From: a virus
Length of the DNA stretch: 32,824 nucleotides
IMG/VR virus record: IMGVR_UViG_3300010970_000108
Location: 1 to 32,824 of that record
Reading direction: 5' to 3' (one strand)
This document shows, one piece after another, positions 8,722 through 32,824 of this stretch. Below the pieces are notes generated by a model. That model saw only the letters and a program-made list of their open reading frames with translations, did not search any database and had not been told where the DNA came from. The first letter of the stretch is position 1. Each line of letters begins with the position of its first letter. Made by a program: the position numbers and the translations under genes.

Positions 8722-9161
8722 TCGTGTTTCACATCAGGGAATAACTTCTGCTCTACCTTAACATCATTCTGTACTTTCTCAACAAGTCCATTTAAACGCT
8801 GAGTAATCGAAGGATTGTAGATGCCTGCCATACCACCAGCTATTTGATCCTCACGTATAATTCGCTTAATGCGTGAACAGATATTCGAATATTCCTCATA
8901 ATTACCCTTTGTATTGCAGAAATAATCATCAGTATCTTTTACAATTCCCTTATGAAAACAATAGTTTGAGAATCCTTCTAAGGTTAAAGGTTTTTCTTTA
9001 GGTCTTTCCACTTGTGTTGCCATTGCTCCAACCCAATCACGCACATGAAAAGGTTTAGCCTTAACCGTTTCAACATACTCTTGAAATAACTCGTACATTT
9101 TCTCAGGTGATTCAATGTATTTATTGCTTTTTGTTAGAGGTGTTTTCTTTTTTTGTGGCAT
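8718..9161 (-). CDS. terS: Terminase small subunit (putative)
   Basis: 147 aa, immediately upstream of and overlapping terL. Basic N-terminus, then YIESPEKMYELFQEYVE...KPLTLEGFSNYC, which is typical of small-terminase DNA-binding domains. Confidence 0.55.
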   Translation of the reverse strand: MPQKKKTPLTKSNKYIESPEKMYELFQEYVETVKAKPFHVRDWVGAMATQVERPKEKPLTLEGFSNYCFHKGIVKDTDDYFCNTKGNYEEYSNICSRIKRIIREDQIAGGMAGIYNPSITQRLNGLVEKVQNDVKVEQKLFPDVKHD

Positions 9162-9354
9162 TGTCTAAACGGTTTTTATTTGTATCTACAAACTTTACAA
9201 TATAGTTCACACAAGACTGGCATCCTTTCCAGGCGAAATCTCCATTCGGTGAAATCTTCTGCGCCAATGCTACTAACTCATTCATCTCGTTTTCACTTGG
9301 ATGAACATCGATTCCGAGCCTGACTCGTTCAAATAAATAATCAAAGTGTTTCAT
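9121..9354 (-). CDS. Hypothetical protein
   Basis: 77-aa ORF between the sigma-like gene and terS. It overlaps both (14 nt and 41 nt). Contains a CQSC pair. Confidence 0.4.
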   Translation of the reverse strand: MKHFDYLFERVRLGIDVHPSENEMNELVALAQKISPNGDFAWKGCQSCVNYIVKFVDTNKNRLDNATKKENTSNKKQ

Positions 9355-9814
9355 TTATGTAAATTTTAATTTTCTTCTTAGCTTTTTTAACCATCTGAAA
9401 TATTGTTGAATAAGGAATCCCAGTAATCTCACCGACCTTTCGATATGTTTTATGCTCTGCATATAGTACAAGAACCTTCTCGCTAACCCAATTCAATTTA
9501 TTCAAAGGTACGATTATTTGTTCTTCTTGTTCTTCTGATGGATGTACAAAGTCATTAGTCAACACCTCACGCATTTTAATGCGGTTAAATTCGGAGTTCT
9601 GCCAAGTTACCATGTTGTACATCATCTTAACCACGTAACCGATAAAACGACCTTCAGAATGCAATTTAATAATAACCGATTCATCCTTGTTAAGTAATTC
9701 TAAAAAACAATGTTGAAGTAAATCATCCTGCAACTCAGTTGGCTTTATTCTCGACAAGCATTCCCTAAGTTCATCACTTCGGTAAAGGTCCTCGATAATT
9801 TGCCTTGCAGTCAT
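9341..9814 (-). CDS. Phage-encoded sigma-70 family (ECF-like) sigma factor
   Basis: 157 aa with a two-domain layout. Region-2-like: DDLLQHCFLELL...FIGYVVKMMYNMV. Region-4 HTH-like: KVLVLYAEHKTYRKVGEITGIPYSTIFQMVKKAKKKI. It aligns by eye with RpoE architecture. Confidence 0.65.
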   Translation of the reverse strand: MTARQIIEDLYRSDELRECLSRIKPTELQDDLLQHCFLELLNKDESVIIKLHSEGRFIGYVVKMMYNMVTWQNSEFNRIKMREVLTNDFVHPSEEQEEQIIVPLNKLNWVSEKVLVLYAEHKTYRKVGEITGIPYSTIFQMVKKAKKKIKIYINETL

Positions 9815-9818
9815 TGAA

Positions 9819-9826
9819 CAAAGTTA
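9819..9826 (-). promoter_or_regulatory. Possible Bacteroidota -7 box (TAACTTTG) upstream of the sigma gene
   Basis: Minus strand reads TAACTTTG-TTCA-ATG, which matches TAnnTTTG. It is only 4 nt from the ATG, so it would give a leaderless transcript or may be coincidental. Confidence 0.25.
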
Positions 9827-9840
9827 CTCATAGTTTATAC

Positions 9841-10188
9841 AAAGTAAAAAAGTAAAAGTAAAATCAACTTACATAGAAATATACATAAATACTATTGTAT
9901 TTACTATATATATAATGTTTTTTATATTCCTAATGTTTTTCTTTACTAATTTACTTTCACTAAAAAAACGGTTTACTTTTTTACTTTGTTCATTTTTGCC
10001 GTGTTAACTATTTAGAAATCAATTAGTTAACTATCATTTTAAAAGTAAAATAAAAGTAAAATAGTAAAAAAATAATTTTACTTTGGCTTTACTTATTTAC
10101 TTTTTTGCTTAACATATTACAATTTTTTCTAATATCAAATTTTGAAAGTAAATTTTTTATTTTACTTTTTTACTTTTGAATTTACTTT
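9841..10188. repeat. Array of 8-mer AAAGTAAA / TTTACTTT repeats in alternating-orientation clusters; candidate origin iterons or regulator-binding array
   Basis: Exact forward copies start at 9841, 9849, 9855, 10042, 10053 and 10145. Exact reverse copies start at 9950, 9972, 9980, 10077, 10096, 10161, 10169 and 10181. Near copies at 9942, 10061 and 10088. Two GTTAACTAT direct repeats (10003, 10026) sit in the centre. This is the largest non-coding tract in the genome. Confidence 0.8.
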
Positions 10189-12462
10189 CTAAAGCATTTT
10201 TTGGTATGAACCATGACCTAATCTATCAAATAAATCATTACTATTTTTTAACCACATCTTTATTGTAGGGCCTTTAACATTATATTTTGCACCAATTTCA
10301 ATGGCAGTCTTTGTGCTGAATGCTTCCGTTAGTTCTTTATAGATATTAAGATAAGGTTGTTTTAATTTATCCAAAGGCGTTTCAGGACTGAGTATCTTCA
10401 ATGCCTTTAGCATATTTCCTAAGAAGTATTCCGTTAACCTGATGGCTCGTTCTACTGCTGATTGTTGAACCACGTTTGATCTATTATCCAAATCATCACA
10501 ACATTGTAAAATGAGTGCAAACCTTAAACAATAGGCTTGATACTTGGCAATTATACCCTTTGCATTCTCATCTTGCGATTTATTATAATACAAGTTTTTA
10601 TAATCATGCCATGACTTGTAAAGTGTTAAAGCATCACTACTTAATGTGTACTTGTCTTTAATATCGTTATCCCTAAATATCAATAGTTTATCAAAAATTC
10701 TATGAACTTGTTCCTTAATATACTCAGGACAACTAATGATATCAAATGATGGCTTTGGTTCTGATTCAGGAAACACAAATAAAAATCTATGATAGAACCC
10801 GTTGAACTGGTTATCATTCTGCGAAAGAATATCCATGATACCTGGTTGAATACCGCCAACGATTCCCATTGAATAGTCGATAACTTTTCTATCATCTGCT
10901 GAAATCCTTTGCTGGAATACCGTTTCACTTGACCACATTTGTAGCCATTTTTGATTATCATCACCAGGTTTATATTGGCTCATTCGCTTTATGAATCCAG
11001 CAAGTTCATCGGCAACCAAACAACAACCTTTAGTATTGTATTGCAAAACATTAACAACCGTTTCCATTGTTGCATCATCAATAATCATCTGACTTAATAT
11101 TGGCTTGATAGGTAATGGCTTGTTTTTATCTTTCTTATCAACCCTTAGTAGTTCTTCGCTATATGATGCAACTTTCTTTCTATATGCCTTGTAATTTTCA
11201 TCATCAATGTTTTTTAGGTAGTTGTAAGCAATTCCCATCGCAGGACTCTTACCACCTCCAGCATGAGCCACAATAGCCATGTATAAGTTTGTGCGTAGTT
11301 TGTAACCTTGCAAGGCTTCAAGGTAACAAGTATTCCCGATGGCGGTGCTTAATGCCGAAAGCATAAACCCTGCAATATATTCGTTTTGGATTCGATGGCT
11401 CTTAATGTAATCTTCTATCTCCTTCGGGAAGATGTCATAAGGAAACAACATCCTATCTTTCAATATTGGTTGATGCTCAATAGGTTTTTGGTTTATTTCA
11501 ATTCCAATACTATCAGCAATACATTGAATTTCATCTAATGTTTTTTTCCAATCTTTGCCATTCTTATAATAAATTATCCTTGATGGTGTTAATACCCATG
11601 ACCTATCTCCGTTACCTTTGGCATCTGCCCATGATGGAAATCCTTGTAATGATGTTGTAAATAACAATACCTTGCGTGAACTGAAATAAACTTTAGCTGA
11701 GTAGTTAGTAAGTGAACCCCTGCGCAAGTAAGCAGTAAATTTATCCTTTGATTTATATCTGAAATCCTTTGATTCATACAAACTCATTTGATTAAGCATC
11801 TCATCGAATGCCTCATCAGTTATTTCACGATCAAACAATAAACAACTATTTTCATATTGTTGCGGATATTCAACTGGGTAAAAAGTATTATTGATTTCTT
11901 CCTTGTACTTATTGAATAAACTACCCGTACTGATTAACAAATCGTATTCATCATCAGTTAGTTCTTCCAAATCCTCAAAAGAATTATGAAACATATCGTA
12001 GCCAGGTGTAGGGCTGCAATAAGACAACAACCCACCAGTATAGACTGCAATCACTTCTTTACCCGATTCACTTGCTGCCAAAGATATCTTATGTGTAAGT
12101 TTTGGGTATTTGATGTAAACATGAAAGCCTTTGTTTCTTGTGGATTCAATGCAGACTTTCCTTAGTACATCAGGATTAGTGGCTTCAACTATATTGAACC
12201 AATCGTTAAACGATACCGTTCCATCTTCGTTCTTAGTATCAAAGTCAATTGTACCAAATGGAGGAAATAGTTTAAGTGCAATTCCGTTTGAATTATCGAT
12301 TAAGTCAATCCATTTTTCTAAGGTTGTTTCATTCCATTCAGATTCTAAAATAGTTGAATGCGCAATGATATGGCTTGATGCAACTTTACTGCTTGAATCC
12401 CATTTGATGGGTAAAGGCTTTAACCCTAATTTTACCAGTTCTTTAAAGATGTTGATGTTCAT
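10189..12462 (-). CDS. Replicase: N-terminal primase-polymerase (Prim-Pol) fused to a DUF3987/D5-like P-loop helicase
   Basis: 757 aa. Prim-Pol motifs GTIDFDTKNEDG (DxD) and NKGFHVYIKY. Central Walker A AHAGGGKSPA, in a context typical of DUF3987 helicases. Confidence 0.7.
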   Translation of the reverse strand: MNINIFKELVKLGLKPLPIKWDSSSKVASSHIIAHSTILESEWNETTLEKWIDLIDNSNGIALKLFPPFGTIDFDTKNEDGTVSFNDWFNIVEATNPDVLRKVCIESTRNKGFHVYIKYPKLTHKISLAASESGKEVIAVYTGGLLSYCSPTPGYDMFHNSFEDLEELTDDEYDLLISTGSLFNKYKEEINNTFYPVEYPQQYENSCLLFDREITDEAFDEMLNQMSLYESKDFRYKSKDKFTAYLRRGSLTNYSAKVYFSSRKVLLFTTSLQGFPSWADAKGNGDRSWVLTPSRIIYYKNGKDWKKTLDEIQCIADSIGIEINQKPIEHQPILKDRMLFPYDIFPKEIEDYIKSHRIQNEYIAGFMLSALSTAIGNTCYLEALQGYKLRTNLYMAIVAHAGGGKSPAMGIAYNYLKNIDDENYKAYRKKVASYSEELLRVDKKDKNKPLPIKPILSQMIIDDATMETVVNVLQYNTKGCCLVADELAGFIKRMSQYKPGDDNQKWLQMWSSETVFQQRISADDRKVIDYSMGIVGGIQPGIMDILSQNDNQFNGFYHRFLFVFPESEPKPSFDIISCPEYIKEQVHRIFDKLLIFRDNDIKDKYTLSSDALTLYKSWHDYKNLYYNKSQDENAKGIIAKYQAYCLRFALILQCCDDLDNRSNVVQQSAVERAIRLTEYFLGNMLKALKILSPETPLDKLKQPYLNIYKELTEAFSTKTAIEIGAKYNVKGPTIKMWLKNSNDLFDRLGHGSYQKML

Positions 12463-12665
12463 AATTCGTTGTTTATTGCCTTAGCAATTTTAGACATGGA
12501 TTCTTGAAACTCACCATCTTGTCTTAAAAAGATTGCAATTTGATTTAAACTTTCTGCTTTCCAAGTTTGGATTGCTAATTTAAAGCATTCAGCCAAAGGT
12601 AACTTAGTAATTTTTTGAATTTAGATTGCATCGTGTTGCAATCCATCAAGTATAGATTTACGCAT
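12459..12665 (-). pseudogene. Small ORF interrupted by an in-frame TAA (MRKSILDGLQHDAI*IQKITKLPLAECFKLAIQTWKAESLNQIAIFLRQDGEFQESMSKIAKAINNEL)
   Basis: Hand translation: ATG at 12665, TAA at 12623..12621, then the frame stays open for 53 codons to a TGA that overlaps the replicase ATG (ATGA). No ATG follows the stop until 12 codons from the end. Confidence 0.4.
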
Positions 12666-12671
12666 AAAGAT

Positions 12672-12719
12672 AAAAAAACCTGATTAGGTTCACGCGTGCC
12701 GGCAATCCCCCAATCAGGT
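12672..12719 (-). terminator. Intrinsic terminator after the VRR-NUC gene
   Basis: Minus strand reads ACCTGATTGGG ... CCTAATCAGGT (10 of 11 positions paired, about 20-nt GC-rich loop), then seven T. It lies about 50 nt downstream of the stop at 12772. Confidence 0.55.
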
Positions 12720-12771
12720 ATATAAAATGATTTAATTGTAATTATCCGGCACGATAACTATTACTGCAAAT

Positions 12772-13188
12772 TTACAACAAATTATCGTATAACATAAAAA
12801 ACTCATCAACACTTGAACAAAATTCATAAATTCCGAAAGCCTTGCGTTCCTTGATTTGCTCTGCAAGTTGAAACTCTGATGGCTTGTCCCTACCGACCTT
12901 AATTTCAATCATTACTGATTTTCCTTTAACGGTAGCGGATATGTCCGCAGTTCCTTTCCTTGTGCTTGACTTTATCCATTTATCACCGACCTTGCGACCT
13001 GATACGTTAATTCTTGTTGCTCGATGTCCGAGCCAGTTCAGGTAGTTACAAATGAACGTAGTCAAGCCATTCGCCTTAGTAACCACTGGCATCTTCGGTT
13101 CAGCGTAGAATCCATCTTTAAACGCAGTCGGGTAGTTTTGGGCAAACCATATTTTGTGGGCTGCTGAGTAGCGTGCTTTATTTGTCAT
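12772..13188 (-). CDS. VRR-NUC / PD-(D/E)XK family nuclease (possible junction resolvase)
   Basis: 138 aa. GTADISATVKGKSVMIEIKVGRDKPSEFQ fits the D...E-x-K...Q signature of VRR-NUC nucleases. Confidence 0.55.
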   Translation of the reverse strand: MTNKARYSAAHKIWFAQNYPTAFKDGFYAEPKMPVVTKANGLTTFICNYLNWLGHRATRINVSGRKVGDKWIKSSTRKGTADISATVKGKSVMIEIKVGRDKPSEFQLAEQIKERKAFGIYEFCSSVDEFFMLYDNLL

Positions 13189-19367: not shown

Positions 19368-19838
19368 TTATAAAATATTTAATCTTGCAAATTCTTTGTG
19401 ATAAACTTCTGCATATTGATTATATGCAAATGCAGCTCTAATTGGTTCTTTATATGAACCTATGTACTTTCTTTTTCTATTTATCGTAATTGCAGCTACA
19501 TAAGTATCATATCTTTTATCATAAGAAATTCCTTTATAACGTGATTTAGAATAATTTTTTCCTTTGGCATTTAAAGAATTTTCTGATTTAGTACAACTTC
19601 TTAAATTATCAATACTGTTATTTTGTTTATTTCCATCTTTATGGTCAATCACATCAGGGAAATACCCATTAAATAAAAAGTAAATTAATCTATGTTCTTT
19701 GTAATATTTATTATCTATACCAATATGAATGTACCCATCACCATTAATAGTACCAGCTTTTTTATTATTTTTATTTCTATATAAAGAACAATCTTTATAA
19801 GTAAATAATTCTAATATTTTTTCTTTTGTAATCTCCAT
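19368..19838 (-). CDS. Free-standing HNH homing endonuclease with a C-terminal AP2-type DNA-binding domain
   Basis: 156 aa. HNH_3 signature IDHKDGNKQNNSIDNLRSCTKSEN, followed by the AP2-like YKGISYDKRYDTYVAAITINRKRKYIGSYKEPIRAAFAYNQ. Confidence 0.8.
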   Translation of the reverse strand: MEITKEKILELFTYKDCSLYRNKNNKKAGTINGDGYIHIGIDNKYYKEHRLIYFLFNGYFPDVIDHKDGNKQNNSIDNLRSCTKSENSLNAKGKNYSKSRYKGISYDKRYDTYVAAITINRKRKYIGSYKEPIRAAFAYNQYAEVYHKEFARLNIL

Positions 19839-20003
19839 TTAGCTGATTTTTAAAGTTGGTAAAATAAGTGTGCGCACTGCATTGGTTAATGAGCCATGAA
19901 CTTTCAAGATAGCTTTCTTTTCGTTATCTTTAAGATAGGCTGATACCAGTTTTAGTCGGTCAGATTCAGGAATAGTCTTTCGACCTACTTTTTGTTTTTC
20001 CAT
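19839..20003 (-). CDS. Small basic protein, first gene of the leftward early operon (possible DNA-binding regulator)
   Basis: The ATG at 20003 (MEKQKVGRKTIPESDRLKLVSAYL...) lies 22 nt downstream of a TAnnTTTG box. The track start at 20078 would include the promoter. Confidence 0.4.
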   Translation of the reverse strand: MEKQKVGRKTIPESDRLKLVSAYLKDNEKKAILKVHGSLTNAVRTLILPTLKIS

Positions 20004-20025
20004 TGTTAATAGTTTTGTTGAATTG

Positions 20026-20033
20026 CAAATATA
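20026..20033 (-). promoter_or_regulatory. Bacteroidota-type -7 box TATATTTG (leftward early promoter)
   Basis: Minus strand TATATTTG matches TAnnTTTG. It is 22 nt upstream of the ATG at 20003, in the only divergent intergenic region. Confidence 0.45.
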
Positions 20034-20092
20034 CATAATTAATTGAAATAAAAAATATTTTTTAAACTTGATAAACATATTGTTTTATTTAT

Positions 20093-20100
20093 TATCTTTG
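20093..20100 (+). promoter_or_regulatory. Bacteroidota-type -7 box TATCTTTG (rightward early promoter)
   Basis: Plus strand TATCTTTG matches TAnnTTTG. A CTTG lies 22 nt upstream as a possible -33 element. The ATG at 20120 is 19 nt downstream. Confidence 0.45.
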
Positions 20101-20119
20101 AATCCTAAATAACAACACA

Positions 20120-20272
20120 ATGACTAAATGTAACTGCCCAAAACAATCAACTAACTGCCTACAATGTGAGGCAGTAGCTTTCTTTTTTCGCCATCAGTTT
20201 TTAATTGTATCAATAATAGTTTTAACCCTTCTTGTCCTATGTGGTCAAGTACAAGACAATGAAACAAGATGA
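20120..20272 (+). CDS. Possible 50-aa Cys-rich membrane peptide
   Basis: Hand-translated MTKCNCPKQSTNCLQCEAVAFFFRHQFLIVSIIVLTLLVLCGQVQDNETR. Its TGA overlaps the next ATG (ATGA). Below the track size cutoff. Confidence 0.35.
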   Translation: MTKCNCPKQSTNCLQCEAVAFFFRHQFLIVSIIVLTLLVLCGQVQDNETR

Positions 20273-20613
20273 TAAATGCAAGAGTAATTCCAGGGCTGAA
20301 GTTCAAAGCCGTTAAAATTCAAAGAGTAGTTTCAATGGATGCAATTATAAAAGTAGTTTGCGAGCATTATGAAACCGATATAACTGCACTACGTAAGCAG
20401 AACCGAACAAGTAGAACCGTTCAAGCAAGGTATATTTTGTTTTATTTATTACGCAAACATACTGATATGTCATTGGTTGATGTTGCAAATTACTTTGCTC
20501 CTGGCATCAAGGACCATTCAACCGTTATACATGGCGTAAGGTTCATTGAAGGTCAACTTAACGCAAAGCATGATAACTCAATTAAAGTCATAATGAATGA
20601 AATTTACATCTAA
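20269..20613 (+). CDS. DnaA C-terminal (domain IV) HTH-only protein
   Basis: 114 aa. RTVQARYILFYLLRKHTDMSLVDVANYFAPGIKDHSTVIHGVRFIE matches the Bac_DnaA_C pattern (R..A..YL.R..T..S...IG..F...DHSTV.H). No AAA+ domain is present. Confidence 0.7.
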   Translation: MINARVIPGLKFKAVKIQRVVSMDAIIKVVCEHYETDITALRKQNRTSRTVQARYILFYLLRKHTDMSLVDVANYFAPGIKDHSTVIHGVRFIEGQLNAKHDNSIKVIMNEIYI

Positions 20614-32746: not shown

Positions 32747-32824
32747 TTAGTTACATTTTTGCGCTCTGAACTTCTCAAGTGCAGTCATTTCTTCAAAAGA
32801 TTTTACCTTCTCTTTAGGTTGCTC
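32747..32824 (-). CDS. C-terminal fragment of the junction-spanning scaffold-like gene (same gene as 1..511)
   Basis: In frame with 1..511 once 32770..32824 is equated with 1..55. It ends ...TALEKFRAQKCN with a TAA at 32749..32747. Confidence 0.5.
   Translation of the reverse strand, partial: EQPKEKVKSFEEMTALEKFRAQKCN

Follow-up and report, generated by a model that had tools for sequence, protein, structure and literature searches.

A probable iteron-type replication origin adjoining a primase-helicase gene in the genome of a metagenomic phage

Introduction

The closest described systems to the locus analysed here are the replication modules of the SaPIs, the pathogenicity islands of Staphylococcus aureus. 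The C-terminal winged helix (WH) of the SaPI Rep or PriRep protein binds iterons situated immediately downstream of rep, and the SaPI origin carries these iterons on both sides of an AT-rich centre, in opposite orientations (PMC9371898). SaPI5 encodes a Rep with a fused primase, and the Rep of the SaPIbov1 type is a superfamily 6 helicase (PMC9371898). Because the SaPI Reps are mutually unrelated in sequence (PMC9371898), sequence homology among Reps marks sub-families of this design and not the kind itself.

Two further systems join several replication activities in a single protein. The alpha protein of P4 combines a primase, a helicase and a C-terminal winged-helix origin-binding domain in one polypeptide, and pRN1, which encodes a superfamily 3 helicase, has its origin directly downstream of the replication gene, in the form of a 100-nt stem-loop without iterons (PMC4234260). 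The helicase family relevant to the present locus is DUF3987, whose members have been described as MCM-related replicative helicases, often fused to an AEP primase and equipped with a C-terminal wHTH (PMC4889955); for one DUF3987 protein, helicase activity on DNA has been demonstrated (PMC11724360). Iteron-containing plasmids, a more distant comparison, have been reviewed (PMC4980987).

The DNA considered here, referred to as the window, is the complete 32,824-nt sequence of the virus record IMGVR_UViG_3300010970_000108 of IMG/VR. An earlier note on this DNA had pointed to an array of octamers at 9841-10188 and had proposed that it was an iteron origin next to a replicase gene or, equally, an operator array controlling a sigma-factor gene. 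The analysis reported below indicates that 9841-10188 is probably the replication origin of the phage, recognised and opened by the adjacent 757-aa protein.

Results

The window represents a whole phage genome. Its first 55 nt (1-55) are identical to its last 55 nt (32770-32824); the assembly is therefore circularly closed and corresponds to a complete genome of ~32.77 kb. All genes around the array are on the minus strand, in the order replication genes, 757-aa gene, array, sigma gene, 77-aa ORF, small (TerS) and large (TerL) terminase subunits and structural genes, with the TerS gene ~650 bp downstream of the array. The array occupies an intergenic tract of 374 bp (9815-10188; 17.6% GC) that extends from the replicase stop to the sigma start. 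The earlier note had described this as the only long non-coding tract, of about 370 bp; its length and borders were correct, whereas its uniqueness was overstated, since 12463-12771 (~309 bp) is also ORF-poor and contains no ORF of at least 50 aa. Within this second tract, upstream of the initiator gene, lies a terminator-like hairpin followed by a T run (12680-12745, minus strand; CCTGATT...AATCAGG TTTTTTT). The relatives L096 and L100 have an 86-aa ORF at this place, overlapping the initiator start codon, of which the window retains no intact counterpart of 50 aa or more.

The octamer AAAGTAAA (reverse complement TTTACTTT) is present in 14 exact copies in 9841-10188. Six of these are on the plus strand (9841, 9849, 9855, 10042, 10053 and 10145) and eight on the minus strand (9950, 9972, 9980, 10077, 10096, 10161, 10169 and 10181). 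Three near copies (9900-9907, 10061-10068 and 10088-10095) are one base off and retain the GTAAA core, giving a total of 17 iterons arranged in four clusters in the direction of the genes. The exact positions that the earlier note had reported, with six forward, eight reverse and at least three near copies, were all recovered, and the clusters of alternating orientation were found as it described them.

Whether the octamer exceeds the background of so AT-rich a sequence had been left by the earlier note as a matter for counting, and it does so at both scales examined. Across the whole window 22 copies of AAAGTAAA are observed, compared with 4.4 +/- 2.0 in shuffled sequences, and the 8 exact copies outside the array are scattered singles. 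A local null model of 1000 dinucleotide-preserving shuffles of the 374-bp tract alone yielded a mean of 0.55 and a maximum of 5 copies against the 14 observed; even the best count reached by any 8-mer in these shuffles had a mean of 2.7 and a maximum of 6. A search for the densest 8-mer clusters over the whole closed genome revealed no second repeat cluster. The inverted repeats of the tract arise from opposed iterons and not from any single long hairpin, and an Rfam search of 9500-10500 returned no match and no sign of a known RNA element.

Read in the direction of the genes, the array has a clear internal order. Cluster 1 (10145..10188, minus strand) begins 1 nt past the stop codon of the 757-aa gene and comprises three forward iterons (10181, 10169, 10161) and one reverse iteron (10145); relatives have a counterpart at the homologous position. 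In cluster 2 (10042..10103, minus strand), forward iterons at 10096, 10088 (near copy) and 10077 face reverse iterons at 10061 (near copy), 10053 and 10042. A central spacer element follows (10003..10034), in which two copies of GTTAACTAT, at 10003 and 10026 as the earlier note had stated, also form the dyad TTAACTA-N13-TAGTTAA. This spacer overlaps a dyad-like block that is conserved in the relatives, ATTGAT..ATCAA..GTTA, the conservation being partial in an alignment of 11 lineages. The three forward iterons of cluster 3 (9950..9987, minus strand; 9980, 9972 and 9950) are aimed at an AT-rich tract (9863..9941; GC 13/80), a candidate DNA unwinding element, across which they are opposed by the three reverse iterons of cluster 4 (9841..9862, minus strand; 9855, 9849 and 9841). 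The AT-rich tract itself contains TATATATATA at 9905-9914, the one degenerate iteron at 9900-9907 and, at 9924-9941 on the minus strand, a conserved non-iteron block, GAAAAACATTAGGAATAT.

In relatives of 66-100% identity the latter block takes the form GAAAAACAT[TA]AG[GA]ATAT (9924-9941), just before a (TA)n tract, and the central ATTGAT..ATCAA..GTTA element is conserved there too. The two non-iteron blocks, 9924-9941 and 10003-10034, could be host-factor sites or a promoter.

Duplex stability was computed from nearest-neighbour energies in windows of 40, 60, 80 and 100 bp across the 32.8-kb genome. With all four window sizes the least stable duplex of the genome falls within 9853-9952, between clusters 3 and 4, and the 40-bp minimum reaches -37.1 kcal/mol, where the mean over the genome is -50.4 +/- 3.8. 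No inflection at the array was seen in the cumulative skew of GC or AT over the genome. The earlier note had looked to such an inflection as a sign of an origin, and this part of its programme proved uninformative because the genes on either side of the array are co-oriented.

The segments 19757-19856 and 20027-20128 also belong to the genome's least stable duplexes, ranking behind the array. This boundary region (19757-20128) separates the early minus-strand genes from a small diverging plus-strand cluster, which opens with the gene for a 114-aa protein (20269-20613, plus strand) that matches DnaA domain IV (Bac_DnaA_C, 2e-19). Like the small HTH proteins of the phage, this protein is a conceivable alternative reader of the repeats; its homologues occur in few loci only and are too divergent, and the related contigs too short, for a co-variation comparison. 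A 156-aa HNH endonuclease is encoded at 19368-19838 on the minus strand (HNH_3, 1e-15; weak AP2 match, 8e-4), and HNH_3 genes recur in the related locus L098.

The gene that ends at the array (10189..12462, minus strand) encodes a candidate initiator of 757 aa, composed of an AEP primase-polymerase, an MCM-like AAA+ helicase (DUF3987, superfamily 6) and a C-terminal winged helix. The protein matches Pfam DUF3987 at 3e-45 as well as PHROG helicase/primase families. A structural model was generated with AlphaFold2 using 58 homologues (pLDDT 84). In Foldseek searches its N-terminal third retrieved pRN1 ORF904 and the prim-pol of phage NrS-1 and its middle part MCM helicases; the end forms a small alpha/beta domain. 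The homologue alignment identified as invariant the residues D73/D75/H114, the Walker A motif GGGKS (402-406) and the Walker B motif DE (485-486). Searches of PDB sequences with phmmer and with the 58-sequence profile gave nothing relevant and no SaPI Rep chain.

The C-terminal winged helix (residues 704-757; 10192..10353, minus strand) was defined from an AlphaFold2 model of the last 82 aa (pLDDT 83), in which the elements follow the order a1-b-a2-a3-beta hairpin. The predicted recognition helix is a3, residues 731-740 (GPTIKMWLKN; 10243-10272, minus strand). The fold matches of this domain are all winged helices and are led by the human MCM8 WH domain with a probability of 0.97, at E-values that are weak, as expected of such a small domain.

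To place the array in a family context, 100 loci were gathered from viral and metagenomic contigs, whose encoded homologues share 30-91% identity; relatives were scanned with a back-translated NGFYHRFLF pattern. GenBank phages gave no match to 9000-13000 in Megablast, and in tblastn only remote ones, at no more than 28% identity and none from a cultured relative. Two of the related contigs are MAG contigs without host information.

In 50 non-redundant loci, the 8-mer most clustered within 450 bp was sought over the whole locus with no prior assumption about its position. The top cluster was located at the primase-helicase stop in 42 of the 50, with its first copy between -175 and +79 nt of the stop and a span of 250-400 bp, so the conservation among related phages that the earlier note had named as a check on its proposal is indeed present. 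This position at the stop codon is kept across relatives of 44-100% identity. The layout stop-[F F (F) R]-[F F (F) R]-[F F]-(TA)n-[R R (R)] recurs in ~35 lineages despite changes of motif, with the (TA)n tract at the same place in most lineages.

The exceptions are of several kinds. In L004, L033, L008 and L010 the array lies 650-1170 nt downstream, behind one or two inserted genes, and so stays beside the downstream block and away from the initiator gene. In L005 and L045 other repeats outrank an array that does adjoin the stop codon, and L057, a fragment of the contig represented by L033, stops short of the array that L033 shows. Gene order differs in L056, where an array with a (TA)10 centre is found just upstream of a small HTH gene and the primase-helicase gene, with a methylase gene directly after the array and the packaging genes far off.

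Several other features were observed among the relatives. At least 10 lineages carry one exact copy of their own iteron within the WH coding sequence, 79-129 nt (26-43 codons) before the stop (L040, L013, L044, L023/L043, L029, L080, L028, L090, L072, L077, L042 and L041). By chance this would be expected in ~2.5% of loci; the window, L001 and L098 have no such copy. L013, L096, L097, L100, L055 and L007 show a short G+C-rich segment and then a T run within the first 25-30 nt after the stop, ahead of the first iteron, for example CCCCAAGAGGGGTTTTTTT in L013 and GCGGCTTTTTTT in others; these segments are terminator-like and absent from the window. In locus L005, 10 kb upstream of the initiator gene, GCGCAAACCTTG is repeated 13 times in tandem at 100-300, every 15 nt. 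This sequence reads as a probable coding pentapeptide repeat, A-N-L-x-x, and has no relation to the origin array.

The iteron itself varies between lineages, in more than 20 motif variants that include AAAGTAAAA, AAAGTTACA, AAAGTCAAA, AAAGTAACA, AAAGTTGCAAA, AGTATAACA, ACTTATGCAA and GCGTAACAAA. The pair L001 and L002 is the most direct comparison; these two loci and L066 differ chiefly in the cassette of winged helix and array. Their arrays align base for base, and every homologous copy reads AAAGTTAC in L001 and AAAGTAAA in L002, as in the window. Their 757-residue proteins differ at 32 positions, 9 of which are concentrated among the final 32 (expected 1.35, P=5e-6), and the L001 changes in the modelled recognition helix include M736N, K739S and N740R.

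Comparison over the first set of loci yielded a simple rule. If helix position 1 is assigned to the Lys conserved in K-M-W-L (K735 of the window's protein), an Arg at position 6 of the helix is paired with C at position 8 of the iteron and an Asn there with A, so that Arg accompanies AAAGTAACA-type and Asn AAAGTAAAA-type repeats. The rule was fixed beforehand from the first loci and held in five of five further loci (L066, L096, L097 and L098, Arg with AAAGTAACA; L100, Asn with AAAGTAAAA). Over all lineages, Arg occurs with C in 28 of 28 cases and Asn with A in 9 of 9. An Arg contacting the G of a C:G pair and an Asn contacting A are the usual chemistry of such readings. A tree restricted to residues 1-690, which leaves the WH domain out, requires at least four concordant switches of helix and iteron; one of these falls in a distant clade, where L090 differs from its sister L039.

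Physical linkage must be weighed against this functional reading. The DNA of the L001 and L002 genes is a mosaic, with 96-100% identity over codons 300-600, 78-93% in the N-terminal and 82-90% in the C-terminal part, which indicates recent recombination within the initiator gene. As the WH codons run directly on into the DNA of the array, one recombined segment could carry both with no functional link needed. Linkage is nevertheless disfavoured as the whole explanation: copies within an array change alike while the spacers drift, those of L001 and L002 being only 80% identical, and the pairing recurs in a distant clade. The C-terminal domain is predicted to be specific for its own iterons, with strong indirect support from the co-variation, which the linkage of adjacent DNA confounds.

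Downstream of the array, the gene for an ECF-like sigma factor of 157 aa (9341..9814, minus strand; Sigma70_r4_2 match, 4e-6) opens the packaging and structural block and lies outside the origin. The sequence TAACTTTG (9819..9826, minus strand), a candidate promoter box of this gene that ends 4 nt before its ATG, matches the Bacteroidota -7 box TAnnTTTG. It is kept in L001 and L002, and cluster 4 is ~15 nt upstream of it. From these features TAACTTTG may, tentatively, be the sigma-gene promoter, abutting cluster 4. TAnnTTTG precedes only 2 of the 38 minus-strand genes of the window genome, and since it is so rare before genes, the inference of a Bacteroidota host from this box was dropped. A scan for sigma-70 promoters and intrinsic terminators gave results not above chance.

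Discussion

The array has the anatomy of an origin because many short sites converge on an easily melted tract directly after a helicase gene. The proposal of an iteron origin beside the replicase, made in the earlier note from the window, is strengthened by the position of the array, its layout, the stability minimum and the co-variation of helix and iteron across relatives. The events at such an origin would presumably be iteron binding, ring loading, melting and origin firing. The winged helix of the 757-aa protein would read the iterons through its recognition helix (residues 731-740); the many bound subunits would form helicase rings on either side of the AT-rich tract, which would melt; and the primase domain would then synthesise the first primers.

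The array is best read as an origin of the SaPI Rep/PriRep design, and hence of a known kind. As in the SaPIs, the predicted initiator is a self-loading helicase that doubles as initiator, a hexameric-type AAA+ protein with a C-terminal winged helix, and the iterons are directly downstream of its ORF, 1 nt away in the window and beside the stop codon in 42 of the 50 non-redundant loci. The AT-rich centre is flanked by at least two opposed iterons per side, here those of clusters 3 and 4, and specificity, type-specific in the SaPIs, would be so here too. The differences are in detail. The 757-aa protein has no sequence similarity to the solved Reps (phmmer, 58-sequence profile, PDB), and it belongs to a complete 32.8-kb phage, whereas the SaPIs are satellites. 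Its iterons are 8-9 nt long, compared with 5-6 nt in the SaPIs; there are 17 in four clusters instead of 6-12; and two internal converging clusters are added on the gene-proximal side.

The other single-polypeptide systems share some of these traits. P4 alpha has the same succession of primase, helicase and WH in one polypeptide together with octamer repeats, which are recognised by its winged helix. Its primase is of the Toprim/DnaG type and its helicase of superfamily 3, in contrast to the AEP and MCM-like domains here, and P4 needs two separate regions in cis, ori and crr, where the present locus has a single array. The closest N-terminal structure is that of pRN1 ORF904, which also has the order prim-pol, helicase, winged helix and a downstream origin. 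That origin is a stem-loop devoid of iterons, unlike the 17 short repeats described here, and the helicase of ORF904 is of superfamily 3, not MCM-like. Lambda O with ori-lambda and the iteron plasmids (RepA, pi, TrfA) likewise have iterons beside an AT-rich unwinding region; their initiators, however, are not helicases and recruit host DnaB, and their iterons are of 17-22 bp and mostly direct repeats. In lambdoid phages and plasmids the iterons are linked to the DNA coding for the domain that reads them, and specificity is movable as one cassette.

Three other explanations of the array were considered. It could be an operator or enhancer of the late block (sigma, terminase and structural genes), bound by a phage regulator or by the same winged helix and without origin function, which we regard as unlikely. 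This idea draws on the location of the array at the junction of replication and late genes in most lineages, on its staying with the downstream genes in L004, L033, L008 and L010 despite insertions after the primase-helicase gene, and on the ~15 nt that separate cluster 4 from TAACTTTG, the box ending 4 nt ahead of the sigma start codon. That the sigma factor itself reads the repeats is excluded: the L001 and L002 sigma factors differ at 2 residues and have an identical region 4, yet their repeats differ. The array also persists without a following sigma gene in L003, L098, L055 and L056, in the last of which it is upstream of the replication operon, and 17 sites converging on the least stable DNA after the gene of a self-contained initiator-helicase constitute an origin architecture. 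Control of the sigma gene, which the earlier note had rated on a par with an origin, therefore finds no support as the primary function of the array, which may still affect the sigma promoter secondarily.

A packaging site (pac) bound by TerS is a much less probable explanation than an operator. Such sites can hold short repeats, as in P1 and SPP1, and the array is indeed upstream of terS-terL in the window and directly followed by terS in L098. The distance from array to terS nevertheless ranges from 0.1 to >5 kb, and several loci have no terS within 4-8 kb, whereas the distance to the primase-helicase stop is constant. The window and L007 both have AAAGTAAA, yet their TerS proteins are only 43% identical; in L056 the array adjoins the primase-helicase operon and is followed by a methylase gene; and the repeats track the WH helix of the primase-helicase. 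The third explanation, that the array is a functionless low-complexity product of chance or slippage in an AT-rich spacer, is excluded. The low GC content of the tract (17.6%) and the AT-richness of the motif speak for it, but the 14 copies far exceed the 5 that 1000 local shuffles gave at most, position and layout are conserved in relatives of 44-100% identity, and in related lineages the same substitution is found in every copy.

The preferred reading as an origin may be extended to the timing of late genes. Because the last three iterons (9841-9862) are ~15 nt upstream of the candidate sigma promoter box, occupancy by the initiator, or firing of the origin, might control when the sigma factor is made and thereby tie late transcription to replication, an extension that we consider rather improbable. 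If it were true, the WH and the origin would form a cassette, swappable between relatives, that sets both replicon identity and a developmental switch.

An origin and its initiator can in this way be assigned to a large phage family known from metagenomes only, with >190 homologous initiators and no cultured relative. The self-loading initiator-helicase design of the SaPIs and P4 would thereby be extended to the AEP-primase/MCM-like fusions of complete phages, without introducing a new principle. With more than 20 matched pairs of helix and iteron and a simple rule (Arg-C:G, Asn-A:T), the family offers material for work on DNA reading by winged helices and on the diversification of replicon specificity, and it may be a source of mutually orthogonal small replicons.
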